NCBI GenBank assembly: GCA_963783475.1
Contig: CAWANW010000018.1
Span: forward strand, 22,285-86,284
DNA length: 64,000 nt
Source: an uncultured Deinococcaceae bacterium
GTDB lineage: Bacteria > Deinococcota > Deinococci > Deinococcales > Deinococcaceae
Direction: 5' to 3'
Shown here piece after piece: positions 18,789 through 23,202 of this stretch. The notes under the pieces were generated by a model that had not been told where the DNA came from, made no database searches, and worked only from the letters and a program-made list of their open reading frames with translations. The position numbers and the translations under genes are program-made. Every line of letters starts with the position of its first letter. The first letter of the stretch is position 1.

Positions 18789-21677
18789 ATGCCACAGGAA
18801 AGAGCCATGACCACCACACAACAGCGCAGCGAGAACAGTGATCTGCTGGGCGGATTCCTGCATGAGGCCGGTGAGGTGCTGGCCGAGATGGACGCCGGGC
18901 TGGGCCGGCTGCGCGCCGCGCCCGCCGGGCCGGACGACGCCACGCACCTGGGCGGGGTGGGCCTGCTGGCCCACCGCCTGCGCGGCAGCGCGGCGCTGTA
19001 CGGCTTTCCGCAGCTGTCCAAGATGGCGGCGCTGCTTGAGCGCATGCTGGAGTCCAGGCCGCTGCTGACCGGTGAGGCGCGCGCCGCGTTCCTCGCGCTG
19101 CTGGGCCAGTCCCACGCCACCCTGGGTTCGGGCCTGGAGCGTATCCTGCGCGGCGACGGCGAGAGTGACCTGGGTCTGGCGTTTGCGCGGGCCGGCGGCG
19201 CCGCCGGCCTGCAGGCCCTGCTGCGCAGCCACCCGACCGCCTTCGCCCCCCGCCCCCCCGAGGACGCGCGCCGCCTGGGCGTGGTGGACGCTCCGGTCTG
19301 TGCCTCCGACGCGCCGCTGACCTCGGTGCTGGAAGGCGAACTGCGGCAGTTTCACCGCGAGAATGCCGAGGTCTGGTCCTACTTCGCCCCAGAGGTGCGC
19401 GAACACCTGGGCAGCCTGCGCGCGCAGCTGGAAGGCGCGTCGGAAGACAGTGCCCCCGACCTGGACGTGATGTTCCGCGCCGCCCACACCGTCAAGGGCA
19501 GCTCCTACATGGTGGGGCTGCCGGGCCTGGGCGACTTTGCTCACGGCCTGGAAGACCTGCTGGGCGGCGTACGTGACGGCGCGCTGCGCCTGGACAGCGG
19601 CGCCCGCGCGGTGCTGGAAGCCGCCCTGGGCGGCATGGACCAGATTCTGGACGTGGCTGAAGGAAACGCCGCCACCGGACACCTGGACCGGACCCTGGCC
19701 CTGCTCAGCGCCCAAATGGCGGCGATGGCCGGCGGTCACGGGCCACCCCCCGTTGATCTTGTGGCCGCGCCCGCGCCCACCGAGGTGGCCCCCCCCACGC
19801 CCGAAACGGCCCCTGGCCGTCAGGACACGGCCTCTATCCGCATTCCGTCGCGCCAGATCGAGGCGTTGATGGAGCAGATGGGCGAACTGGTGACGGTGCG
19901 CTCACGGCTGGGACAGACGCTGGCCCGCCTCGGTGACCTCCAGGGCGCCATGCAGGACTCGCAGGGCCGCTTCCAGCGCACGGTGCGTGATTTTGAGGAA
20001 CGGCATCTGAACCCCGACATGGTGCGCGCCGCACCGGACCGTCCCGCGCCGGGCAGTGAGGCCACCATGGGCGGGGCCAACCTGACGCAGCAGTTCGACG
20101 AGCTGGAATTTGACACCTACAACGACCTGAACATTCTGGCCCGCTCGATCACCGAGCTGAGCGCCGACTTCGCCGAGGTCCGCCGCCGCCTGTCGGGCAA
20201 CCTGACCGAACTGCAGGGCGACAACGAGCTGCTGGGCAAGCTGCTGCGCCGGCTGCGGCTGGACCTGACCCAGACCAGCCGGGTGGCGTTCTCGCAGGCC
20301 GCGTTCCGGCTGCGGCGCTGGGCCCGCGAGCACGAGGACCGCTTCGAATTCATCAGCGAGGGCGAGGACGTGCGCGTGGACAGCGCCTCGCTGCAGCGCC
20401 TGATCGACCCCCTGATGCACCTGATGACCAACGCCCTGCACCACGGTGTGGGCAGCGCCGAGGCGCGCGCCGCTGCGGGCAAGCCTGTCCGCGGCCAGGT
20501 GTGGCTGCGGGCCACCGAGCGGCAGAATTTTCTGGAAGTCAGCGTGCAGGACGATGGCCAGGGGCTGGACCTGGACGCCATCGGCAACCGCGCGCTGGAA
20601 AAGGGCCTGCGGTCCGTGCAGGAGCTGAGCCAGATGAGCGACGAGGACCGGGCGCGGCTGATCCTGCTGCCGGGCCTGTCCACCGCCGCCGCCGTCAGCA
20701 CCGCCGCCGGGCGCGGCGTGGGCATGGACGTGGTGGCCACGGCCGCCCGGCAGCTGGGCGGGGAACTGCTGATTGACACCCGGCGCGGCGCCGGCACCAC
20801 CTTTACCCTGCGCCTGCCGGTCACGCGCCGCATCATCGACGTGCTGCCGGTGCAGGTGGCCGGCGTCGAACTGGGCTTTGCGGTGGGCAGCGTGCGTGCC
20901 CTGCGCGAGCTGCGTGCCGACGAGATCCTGTTTGGTGACGCCGGGCCGGAACTGGGCTTCGAGGGCCGCGCGGTGCCGATCATCGACCTGCGCGCGGTCT
21001 GGGGCCGGCCGGAGGGCGGCGACCACGAGGAGACCTTCCGGCTGGTGGTGCTGTCCACGCCCACCGGGGAACTGGCCACGCGCGTCGACGACTTCGGACA
21101 GATCGAGGAAGTCAGCGTGACGCCGCTGGGCGGCCTGCTCAGCGGGCTGGACTATCTGTCCGGCACGGCCCTGTCGGCCGCCGGCCACGCGTTCCCGGTT
21201 CTTGACCCAACCGGCCTGGGCCGCCTCGCCCGCCGCCCGCAGGACTTCTTGCAGTCGACCGGCGCCGCTGGCGCCTCGGTGCGGCGTACCCGGATCCTGC
21301 TGGTGGACGACTCGCTGAGCGTCCGGCGCCTGGTGGGCCGCATGCTGGAAAACGGCGGCTACGCAGTGGTCACGGCCAACGACGGCCAGGAGGCACTGGA
21401 CCTGCTGCAACAGGACGCCGACTTCGGCGCGGTGGTCAGCGACCTGGAAATGCCGCGCATGAACGGCTATGAGCTGCTGTCCGCCGTGCGTGCCCGGCCC
21501 GCCACCGCCGCACTGCCGCTGATGATCATGACCACCCGCGCCGGCGAGAAACACCAGCGGCTCGCGCTGCAGCTGGGAGCCAGCGACTACTTCACCAAAC
21601 CGGTGGGCGAGGCCCTGCTGCTGCGCCGCATCGGCAGCGTGCTGGCCGATGTGGCGGCGCAGGCGGTGGGCGCATGA
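18789..21677 (+). CDS. cheA: Hybrid CheA/ChpA-like kinase (Hpt-Hpt-dimerisation-HATPase-CheW-REC)
   Basis: AHRLRGSA and AHTVKGSS (two Hpt), HLMTNALHHG, DDGQG, GRGVGMDVV, C-terminal LLVDDS...SDLEMP. Start may be ATG 18807. Confidence 0.92.
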   Translation: MPQERAMTTTQQRSENSDLLGGFLHEAGEVLAEMDAGLGRLRAAPAGPDDATHLGGVGLLAHRLRGSAALYGFPQLSKMAALLERMLESRPLLTGEARAAFLALLGQSHATLGSGLERILRGDGESDLGLAFARAGGAAGLQALLRSHPTAFAPRPPEDARRLGVVDAPVCASDAPLTSVLEGELRQFHRENAEVWSYFAPEVREHLGSLRAQLEGASEDSAPDLDVMFRAAHTVKGSSYMVGLPGLGDFAHGLEDLLGGVRDGALRLDSGARAVLEAALGGMDQILDVAEGNAATGHLDRTLALLSAQMAAMAGGHGPPPVDLVAAPAPTEVAPPTPETAPGRQDTASIRIPSRQIEALMEQMGELVTVRSRLGQTLARLGDLQGAMQDSQGRFQRTVRDFEERHLNPDMVRAAPDRPAPGSEATMGGANLTQQFDELEFDTYNDLNILARSITELSADFAEVRRRLSGNLTELQGDNELLGKLLRRLRLDLTQTSRVAFSQAAFRLRRWAREHEDRFEFISEGEDVRVDSASLQRLIDPLMHLMTNALHHGVGSAEARAAAGKPVRGQVWLRATERQNFLEVSVQDDGQGLDLDAIGNRALEKGLRSVQELSQMSDEDRARLILLPGLSTAAAVSTAAGRGVGMDVVATAARQLGGELLIDTRRGAGTTFTLRLPVTRRIIDVLPVQVAGVELGFAVGSVRALRELRADEILFGDAGPELGFEGRAVPIIDLRAVWGRPEGGDHEETFRLVVLSTPTGELATRVDDFGQIEEVSVTPLGGLLSGLDYLSGTALSAAGHAFPVLDPTGLGRLARRPQDFLQSTGAAGASVRRTRILLVDDSLSVRRLVGRMLENGGYAVVTANDGQEALDLLQQDADFGAVVSDLEMPRMNGYELLSAVRARPATAALPLMIMTTRAGEKHQRLALQLGASDYFTKPVGEALLLRRIGSVLADVAAQAVGA

Positions 21678-22461: not shown

Positions 22462-23202
22462 ATGCCCCAGATTTTTATCGTTGACGACAGCATCAGTGTC
22501 CGCAAGGCGCTGGAGATCACCTTCAAACGCCACGCGCTGGATTCTTTCAGCGCCGTCAGTGCCGAGCACGCCCTGGAAACCCTGGCCGGCGATCCGCATT
22601 TCGACCTGCTGATGGCCGACGTGATCATGCCGGGCATGAGCGGCCTGGAACTGTGCTCCGAGCTGCGCCGCGACGCCCGTTTCAACCACCTGCCTATCGT
22701 GCTGATGAGCGGCAACGTGGACGACGAGATCCGGCGGCAGGCGCAGGAGGTCGGCGCCAACGGTGTGCTGCGCAAGCCCTTCAGCCCCGACGAACTGATT
22801 CCGCTGGTCGAGGGCCTGCTGCGCGCCGCCGAGGCCGGCATGGCCGCCGAACCTGAACCCGCCCAACCTGAACCCGCCGTGCCTGAGGCTGCCCCCAGCC
22901 AGCTTGACCAACTGGTGGCCGAGTACCGCCGCCGCAGCGACGTGGAAGACCTGATCGTGCTGGACGCCCACGGCCAGATCGTGCTGGCCGGCGGCGAACC
23001 GGGTTCGCCGGGAGCGGCCGAGCGCCTGCCGATGTACGCCCGGCACTTCGTCGCCACCGCCAGCGTCATCGGCCAGCATCTGCTGGGTGACGCGTTGCAG
23101 TCGGTGACCCTGCGCTTCGAGGGCCGCGAGGCCACCTTCCACCCGCAGGACGGGTCCCTGGTCATCGCCCTGACGCGCCTGAACCTCAAGACGCTGAACT
23201 AG
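22462..23202 (+). CDS. Response regulator with C-terminal roadblock/LC7 (MglB-like) domain
   Basis: Canonical REC (IVDDS, MADVIMP, LRKPF), Pro/Glu linker, then a DVEDLIVLDAHGQIV...SVTLRFEG pattern. Confidence 0.7.
   Translation: MPQIFIVDDSISVRKALEITFKRHALDSFSAVSAEHALETLAGDPHFDLLMADVIMPGMSGLELCSELRRDARFNHLPIVLMSGNVDDEIRRQAQEVGANGVLRKPFSPDELIPLVEGLLRAAEAGMAAEPEPAQPEPAVPEAAPSQLDQLVAEYRRRSDVEDLIVLDAHGQIVLAGGEPGSPGAAERLPMYARHFVATASVIGQHLLGDALQSVTLRFEGREATFHPQDGSLVIALTRLNLKTLN

Follow-up and report, generated by a model that had tools for sequence, protein, structure and literature searches.

A receiver–Roadblock protein and its PATAN neighbour as candidate outputs of a pilus-type chemosensory operon in a Deinococcaceae genome

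The last two genes of a chemosensory operon in a 64,000-nucleotide stretch of Deinococcus DNA encode a pair of proteins that most likely act as the terminal output or adaptor proteins of their genome's only chemosensory pathway, a Pil-Chp/type IV pilus (Tfp)-type system that probably controls type IV pili. The stretch (hereafter the window; ∼70% GC, positions 22285–86284 of contig C18) belongs to a 3.63-Mb assembly of an uncultured Deinococcaceae bacterium (G000) that is 99.98% complete. The first protein, P0001 (248 amino acids (aa)), joins a degenerate receiver to a PATAN (DUF4388) domain; the second, P0002 (246 aa), joins a canonical receiver to a domain with the Roadblock fold. Their closest named relatives are in both cases from D. 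aerolatus. Both open reading frames (ORFs) lie on the + strand exactly where the original prediction, which was made from the sequence alone, had placed them (Table 1). A link from phosphorylation to a small GTPase that acts on type IV pili, built from this pair, is plausible but unproven.

Domain architecture of P0001 and P0002

P0002 begins with a receiver (REC) that the Response_reg profile (PF00072) matches at residues 4–115 with 81.1 bits, against a cut-off of 30.2. Across 38 orthologs (alignment A1), residues D8, D9, D53, K105 and P106 never vary, and the conservation of S83 reaches at least 90%. P0002 is predicted from these residues to be a genuine phospho-accepting response regulator. 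The α1 motif DDSxSVRKALE is likewise invariant, which suggests that the orthologs share a single conserved phosphodonor. The linker that follows varies strongly in length among the orthologs. The D. radiodurans ortholog (AAF12430.1) is annotated merely as a ‘response regulator’.

The C-terminal fold of P0002 is Roadblock, although Pfam does not see it in the window's own sequence. Robl_LC7 (PF03259) reaches 13.2 bits on P0002 (E 0.075), below its cut-off of 23, and does not match the C-terminal domain alone. When the orthologous C-terminal domains were excised from 35 orthologs fetched as DNA, 21 of them matched Robl_LC7 individually, the best at 1.1e-11. Among solved structures, the resulting family profile best matches Streptomyces CvnB5 (2e-8, 37.5 bits), followed by Myxococcus xanthus MglB (2.4e-5, 27.5 bits) and archaeal Roadblock proteins (∼2e-5). 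Matches to Thermus thermophilus MglB and to MglC (each ∼18 bits; E 0.02 for MglC 7CT3), LAMTOR2 and dynein LC7 are weaker. An AlphaFold2 (AF2) model of the window's own domain has an α1-β1-β2-α2-β3-β4-β5 topology, with a predicted local distance difference test score (pLDDT) of 85 and a predicted template-modelling score (pTM) of 0.78. The top matches of this domain in a Foldseek search of the PDB are all Roadblock/LC7/LAMTOR proteins, with template-modelling (TM) scores of 0.66–0.77. The fold comparison that the original prediction had proposed as a check thus gives Roadblock by both AF2 and Foldseek, and its description of the second protein as a canonical receiver fused to a roadblock-like domain stands.

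The low Robl_LC7 score, together with a P0001 receiver that also falls below its Pfam cut-off, could be read as favouring a chance ORF or a C-terminus of some other kind. We give that view practically no weight: the family profile, the AF2 model, the Foldseek matches and orthologs of 30–98% identity in conserved synteny rule it out. Both families are conserved and syntenic in >40 loci, so neither P0001 nor P0002 is a chance ORF.

P0001 carries its PATAN domain at the C-terminus. The DUF4388/PATAN profile (PF14332) matches residues 133–237 over profile positions 1–120 of 122 with 29.3 bits, above its cut-off of 25, and remote orthologs reach 51 bits. The N-terminal receiver is degenerate. Response_reg aligns to residues 17–87 (profile positions 8–76 of 111) with 27.9 bits, below the cut-off of 30.2, and the P0001 family profile matches solved receivers at 1e-14. 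The AF2 model (pLDDT 90, pTM 0.87) runs β1-α1-β2-α2-β3-α3-β4, then a disordered loop, one helix and the PATAN domain; α4-β5 is missing, and the (βα)5 fold is thus incomplete. Foldseek superposes the model on receivers across ∼80 residues at a root-mean-square deviation of ∼1 Å. This α4-β5 segment is deleted in Deinococcus P0001, and remote orthologs have a full-length receiver (51.9 bits).

The residues of a working receiver have been lost as well. The Thr/Ser and Lys positions have no equivalent in P0001, and the phospho-accepting position, D58, is Asp only within the genus Deinococcus; other lineages have Tyr, Ala, Ser or Thr there. Conserved instead is an ALTxLER motif in which E48 is invariant (alignment A3). 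The N-terminus is thus a pseudo-receiver and probably serves as a binding module rather than a switch. The original prediction had read the first protein as a degenerate receiver followed by a PATAN-like domain, the reverse of the order in PatA and PixG; the sub-threshold Pfam match, the truncated model, the lost catalytic residues and the above-cut-off PF14332 match agree with it on every count. The N-terminal PATAN and C-terminal receiver of PatA-type regulators are accordingly not the arrangement found in P0001.

A sequence search of the PDB with the P0001 family returned no solved PATAN structure. The best 50 Foldseek matches of the full P0001 model are solely to receivers, and no solved PATAN-fold relative is named among them. 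A profile search found three further PATAN/DUF4388 proteins in the same genome (216–289 aa; Table 1). They lack a receiver and lie in unrelated neighbourhoods, beside a CDP-diglyceride synthase-type gene, a YjeF-type gene, and scpB with a nitrilase-family gene.

The operon and its relatives

The two proteins are encoded behind a chemosensory gene set (Table 1). The TGA stop of cheA overlaps the ATG of P0001 as ATGA (21674–21677), and P0001 is, judged from this arrangement, translationally coupled to CheA. P0002 follows after a 41-nt gap that contains an AAGGA motif. At the other end, AAGGAAGG precedes the ATG of the first receiver gene at 13273. No terminator-like site was found on the + strand within the operon. 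Two histidine phosphotransfer (Hpt) domains feed the four receivers of the operon, which are those of gene 1, the C-terminus of CheA, P0001 and P0002; neither CheR nor CheB is encoded in it. The only CheR domain of the genome lies far from the operon, inside a 1077-aa open frame (G000:C2:321547-322131).

The composition is that of the Pil-Chp/Tfp class: a CheY-like receiver, CheW, methyl-accepting chemotaxis proteins (MCPs) and a hybrid CheA that has more than one Hpt domain and ends in a receiver, in a genome that carries pilus genes and no flagellin. The two MCPsignal matches found genome-wide are the two MCPs of the operon. The genome encodes a PilQ secretin and PilB/PilF- and PilT-like ATPases, and no flagellin was found in it. 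Since the only MCPs of the genome are in the operon and pilus genes are present without flagellin, pili are the sole obvious target. Domain composition and gene order thus place both genes at the end of a pilus-type chemosensory operon.

Table 1. Positions of the operon genes, of the domains of P0001 and P0002, and of receiver-less PATAN genes elsewhere in the genome (window coordinates unless a locus is named)
Feature	Position	Strand	Basis
CheY/PilH-like single-domain receiver, operon gene 1, 119 aa	13273..13632	+	Response_reg 81 bits; syntenic in related loci
CheW-like coupling protein, GTG start, 143 aa	13638..14069	+	CheW domain 48.5 bits; start codon checked
MCP 1 (HAMP + MCPsignal)	14158..16416	+	Pfam domains
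MCP 2 (HAMP + MCPsignal)	16496..18757	+	Pfam domains
Hybrid CheA/ChpA-like kinase, 962 aa: 2 × Hpt, dimerisation, HATPase, CheW, C-terminal receiver	18789..21677	+	Pfam
P0001, pseudo-receiver + PATAN/DUF4388, 248 aa	21674..22420	+	Pfam, family profile, alignment, AF2, Foldseek
P0001 truncated receiver-like domain, residues 9–112	21698..22009	+	AF2 secondary structure, alignment A3, Foldseek
P0001 PATAN (DUF4388) domain, residues 132–241, without α-clip insertion	22067..22396	+	PF14332
P0002, receiver-linker-Roadblock response regulator, 246 aa, final operon gene	22462..23202	+	Pfam, orthologs, synteny
P0002 canonical receiver, residues 4–115	22471..22806	+	Response_reg
P0002 Pro/Ala/Glu-rich linker, residues 121–145	22822..22896	+	Alignment A1, columns ∼150–235
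P0002 Roadblock/LC7-fold domain, residues 146–246, ends directly after β5, no α3	22897..23199	+	Profile, AF2, Foldseek
Receiver-less PATAN protein gene	L008:1279-1929	-	
Receiver-less PATAN protein gene	L009:1498-2223	+	
Receiver-less PATAN protein gene	L010:1039-1908	-	

The arrangement is not peculiar to this genome. In a tblastn comparison of the window proteins with 80 related loci, the order REC-CheW-MCP(s)-CheA-[REC*-PATAN]-[REC-Robl], where REC* stands for the degenerate receiver, recurs in Deinococcus, Meiothermus, Trueperaceae, metagenome-assembled genomes (MAGs) of Deinococcales, and Methylomirabilota/Rokubacteria. A library-wide search with the Roadblock profile returned 120 clusters (50% identity) at E <= 1e-10. 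Most of these share the layout of P0002, being 245–305 aa long and matched at the C-terminus. Moreover, single chains that combine REC, DUF4388 and Robl_LC7 exist (P0296, 391 aa; P0272, 427 aa), and few Roadblock domains are as closely related to the family as theirs. By the Rosetta-stone argument, such fusions suggest that P0001 and P0002 act together. A search for fusions of this kind with the P0001-family profile found none among the 8000 candidates listed.

Variants of the operon occur in two other groups. In an Acidobacteria locus (L058:7038-10771), extra genes for CheB and two CheW proteins are inserted, REC-PATAN is kept, and the last receiver protein has no detectable C-terminal Roadblock domain. 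A Nitrospira locus (L052:8852-11485) has two CheW genes, a 494-aa receiver with a coiled coil as its last gene, and no PATAN gene.

Further Roadblock genes lie elsewhere in the genome. A second REC-Roadblock paralogue of 269 aa (G000:C9:421809-422618; L092:9813-10622, +) is outside the window, between a thioesterase gene and argG/argH rather than in a chemosensory operon. Its receiver is canonical, and its Roadblock domain is full-length, α3 included. Many Deinococcus genomes give a second match of about this size, which suggests that this paralogue, too, is conserved. Three tandem stand-alone Roadblock genes lie on contig C3 (G000:C3:121.6-122.7 kb; L003:816-1821); no GTPase gene follows them, the next gene being a serine hydrolase. 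The same triple occurs in a Thermus genome after ybaB-recR (L093:5247-6335), again with no GTPase gene beside it. No other Thermus protein matches the REC-Roadblock domain profile as well as the third member of this triple (∼60 bits).

In Deinococcota the REC-Roadblock gene is the final gene of the operon. The downstream genes (SMC, DnaJ, methyltransferase, release-factor-like and others) are unrelated and variable, and gave no functional hint. In the window (23203–23275) the next gene encodes a SIS-domain protein; its longest ORF would start from a GTG at 23208, 5 nt past the P0002 stop. Homology begins at residue 4 in L013, a related locus, and at residue 23 in L012 and L014, and an ATG lies at 23271.

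Links to MglA, MglB and the pilus motor

We propose that the hybrid CheA phosphorylates Asp53 of P0002 through one of its Hpt domains, and that this would alter the docking of the tethered Roadblock domain, presumably a dimer like other Roadblock proteins. The likeliest partner would be the MglA/MglB GTPase module, on which P0002 may form a phosphorylation-gated layer that is either MglB-like, that is, similar to a GTPase-activating protein (GAP), or MglC-like. P0001 would be a phosphorylation-independent adaptor that, jointly with P0002, relays the signal to the pilus motor proteins PilB/PilC in the manner of cyanobacterial PATAN domains: there PATAN is an output domain, PixE binds PilB1 through it, and PilC is bound by PatA-type regulators (bioRxiv 10.1101/2021.06.11.447907). 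In this scheme we infer the phosphotransfer, all of the protein–protein contacts and the pilus phenotype. The whole picture, from CheA through D53 of P0002 to Roadblock docking on MglA/MglB, with P0001 bridging to the pilus motor, seems to us evenly poised between right and wrong. A more exacting version, in which the Roadblock layer docks on MglB/MglA, CheA directly sets the MglA GTPase cycle, and the P0001 PATAN domain couples to PilB/PilC, is tentative, and we would sooner doubt it than assert it. The data are just as compatible with P0002 being an adaptor of the MglC kind, or with an effect exerted directly on the pilus motor.

Gene neighbourhoods in another phylum support the proposal. 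The original prediction had turned on the existence of mglA in the genome. A single canonical mglB-mglA operon, encoding proteins of 171 and 196 aa, lies on contig C15; tblastn found no other MglA-like gene in this genome. In seven Methylomirabilota loci (L056, L059, L067, L069, L070, L079 and L089), the chemosensory operon runs on into a gene for a large protein, then mglA and mglB. The MglA of these loci is 53–56% identical to that of the Deinococcaceae genome, and their MglB matches Robl_LC7 at 5e-14. In the five loci that reach far enough (L056, L059, L067, L069 and L089), the next gene is pilB (T2SSE + MshEN). In two further loci (L061 and L065), the large protein and MglB are present and MglA was not detected. 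The large protein lies between the REC-Roadblock gene and mglA (e.g. L067:10852-13983, L089:10882-13857), is ∼800–1040 aa long and has no Pfam domain; tblastn found no homologue in the Deinococcaceae genome. Thus the Methylomirabilota REC-Roadblock gene is one gene away from mglA, yet a separate mglB is present as well. Going by gene order, this mglA-mglB-pilB linkage strengthens the idea that phosphorylation may feed into a small-GTPase switch for pili. PATAN genes have also been reported near mglA and mglB (PMC4316618), and, according to Makarova et al. 2006 as cited in that paper, MglB homologues are encoded near PATAN proteins. MglA and MglB are stated to influence pilus functions in Thermus (Salzer 2015, as cited in PMC12393216).

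MglB contacts MglA via its α2 two-helix side and contributes no catalytic residue (PMC3199381). In P0002, α2 is a long helix in which small and hydrophobic residues abound and one Gly is nearly invariant. A hidden Markov model (HMM) alignment places Ala and Val of P0002 opposite A64 and G68 of M. xanthus MglB (A68 and A72 in T. thermophilus), a correspondence that assumes a +1 numbering, depends on the alignment and is compatible rather than diagnostic. The genome's own MglB matches the Roadblock part of REC-Roadblock orthologs in tblastn at 1e-5. Column conservation in the domain is not concentrated on any one surface.

Several observations weigh against a direct action on MglA/MglB. The genome already has a separate canonical MglB, and in no Deinococcota locus does the operon adjoin mglAB or pil genes. 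MglA is found in 149 of the 151 sampled Deinococcota, Thermus included, and going by the best E-values the operon-type REC-Roadblock is seemingly absent from Thermus and from ∼40% of the sampled Deinococcus genomes. With MglAB near-universal and the operon patchy, MglAB must work without the operon. T. thermophilus, for its part, is reported to lack MCPs and pilH (PMC12393216). The Roadblock domain differs too: Deinococcus members end right after β5 (∼100 aa) and lack α3, which Meiothermus, Trueperaceae and Methylomirabilota retain (∼117–120 aa). This helix contributes the ‘four-helix side’ by which MglB binds MglC (PMC10329633). The family profile, moreover, ranks CvnB5 above M. xanthus MglB and T. 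thermophilus MglB/MglC, and the genome's own MglB scores 24.8 bits on it versus 36 bits for the second REC-Roadblock paralogue. By these scores the P0002 Roadblock domain belongs to a Roadblock clade of its own and is not an MglB ortholog. P0002 is also not adjacent to mglA, not a stand-alone protein of ∼130–180 aa, and without the C-terminal extension of MglB. The architecture that the original prediction described is thus confirmed and its interpretation supported in part; its MglB-like label for the second protein is too specific, since the profile matches MglB no better than it does other Roadblock proteins. Finally, many Deinococcus species are cocci, in which ‘polarity’ has no obvious meaning; there it may amount to the placement or activation of a pilus/competence machine.

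Two observations stand beside this weighing. Co-occurrence of REC-Roadblock with MglA among the 151 Deinococcota was uninformative as a test of the link, MglA being present in all but two. One Truepera MAG has an mglB homologue (L046:16860-17342, -; 42% identical to the genome's own MglB) within ∼7 kb of the REC-Roadblock gene and on the opposite strand, the only Deinococcota locus in which the two lie so near.

These points leave room for a pathway that bypasses MglA, in which the P0002 Roadblock domain would be a dimerisation or docking module that, with the PATAN protein, binds PilB/PilF, PilT, PilC or another NTPase. The PATAN gene always adjoins the REC-Roadblock gene and the two are fused in some lineages; PATAN domains bind PilB1/PilC in Synechocystis; and Roadblock domains are described as generic NTPase regulators (PMC4316618). 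A Deinococcota operon without mglAB linkage and a Roadblock domain that is not specifically MglB-like sit well with such a bypass, and so does the presence of pilB in the Methylomirabilota operon. In that same operon, however, mglA and mglB sit between the REC-Roadblock gene and pilB, and the well-studied bacterial Roadblock proteins named here (MglB, MglC and CvnB) all work in small-GTPase modules. We regard the bypass as a serious but rather unlikely alternative. It is improbable, and more so than the bypass, that P0002 chiefly serves as a phosphate sink or competitor and so tunes how phosphoryl groups flow to the CheY-like receiver of the first gene, with a C-terminal domain that merely localises or dimerises it. 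Four operon receivers are fed by two Hpt domains, and antagonistic regulator pairs are known from the available accounts of PixG/PixH (Tax1) and PilG/PilH (Pil-Chp) (PMC11181946, PMC10519157). Yet the Roadblock domain is conserved over two phyla, in the clusters counted above and mostly at the length and layout of P0002, and it is retained in the PATAN fusions, which together argue for a specific output function.

If the proposed link to MglA/MglB is true, it would give the first case of a chemosensory kinase wired directly, at the biochemical level, to a small GTPase of bacteria. It would work in the largely coccoid Deinococcus, possibly placing or activating a pilus and competence machine and not setting a front-rear polarity. 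The route from chemotaxis-type phosphorylation to MglA/MglB is unsolved even in Myxococcus, where the step from Frz to the polarity module is said to act ‘by unknown mechanisms’ (PMC10329633). A response regulator with a Roadblock output would be a natural short-cut, and makes the step from phosphorylation to the GTPase testable with purified proteins. The REC-Roadblock protein is always accompanied by a PATAN protein, and mglA-mglB-pilB follow in one phylum. The pair also provides a functional lead for two widespread, poorly known domains (PATAN/DUF4388 and bacterial Roadblock) and for the sole chemosensory pathway of a non-flagellated phylum. The architecture will not surprise specialists in domain architecture, yet it makes an unsolved step directly accessible to experiment. 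D. radiodurans is genetically tractable and naturally transformable.

Comparison with known systems

Response_reg–Robl_LC7 fusions with the architecture of P0002 were listed by Wuichet and Søgaard-Andersen in 2014; a BLASTP search with M. xanthus MglB in that paper matched the uncharacterised C-terminus of five receiver proteins (PMC4316618). They were listed only, without operon context, structure or function. Both the REC-Roadblock fusions and the PATAN/MglB neighbourhoods are therefore already catalogued but unstudied (PMC4316618). We found no experimental work in the literature on any member of the family or on a Deinococcus chemosensory operon. The abstract of Makarova and colleagues from 2006 reportedly mentions Roadblock fusions.

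The nearest comparison for the Roadblock domain is MglB, the GAP of MglA (M. xanthus 6H5B/6HJM, T. thermophilus 3T12/1J3W; PMC3199381). P0002 shares its α-β-β-α-β-β-β fold with detectable homology, and its α2, with small and hydrophobic residues and a near-invariant Gly, resembles the two-helix side by which MglB binds MglA. P0002 differs from MglB in its fused receiver, in the distance to mglA, in the missing C-terminal extension and, in Deinococcus, in the missing α3. RomR and MglC of M. xanthus (PMC10329633, PMC4719450) offer a second parallel. There the Roadblock adaptor MglC sits between RomR and MglB, its dimer stacked on that of MglB, and MglA-GTP breaks the stack (PMC10329633). MglC contacts MglB with its FDI surface and RomR with its KRR surface, and it has no GAP activity. 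The receiver, Pro-rich linker and Roadblock domain of P0002 resemble a RomR-MglC unit in one chain, and both systems lie downstream of a pilus-steering chemosensory system. In contrast, P0002 has no specific similarity to MglC, and the Glu-rich C-terminus of RomR is absent.

P0001 is best compared with PatA-type PixG, PixE and LsiR, with which, as far as the available descriptions go (bioRxiv 10.1101/2021.06.11.447907; PMC11181946), it shares a PATAN domain, a receiver and a pilus-class chemosensory locus. The phosphorylatable Asp is lost in some members of that group, too. Unlike these, P0001 has its receiver first, as a truncated pseudo-receiver, and its gene follows cheA rather than leading the locus, with a REC-Roadblock gene alongside.

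The operon as a whole resembles Pil-Chp of Pseudomonas aeruginosa (PilG/PilH/PilI/PilJ/ChpA), which by the available accounts (PMC10519157, PMC12632253) likewise has a CheY-like receiver, CheW, an MCP and a multi-Hpt hybrid CheA. The CheA proteins of both carry a C-terminal receiver, and pili are the presumed target here. The Deinococcus operon differs in lacking CheR and CheB and in having two extra outputs, PATAN and Roadblock, that are missing from Pil-Chp. Two-component-type input is also wired to a Roadblock protein and a GTPase in the Streptomyces conservons, which consist of the kinase CvnA, the Roadblock protein CvnB (3LEQ), CvnC and the GTPase CvnD. There, however, CvnB is a stand-alone protein in a four-gene conservon with its own GTPase, whereas in P0002 the Roadblock domain shares its chain with a receiver, and the pathway is based on CheA.

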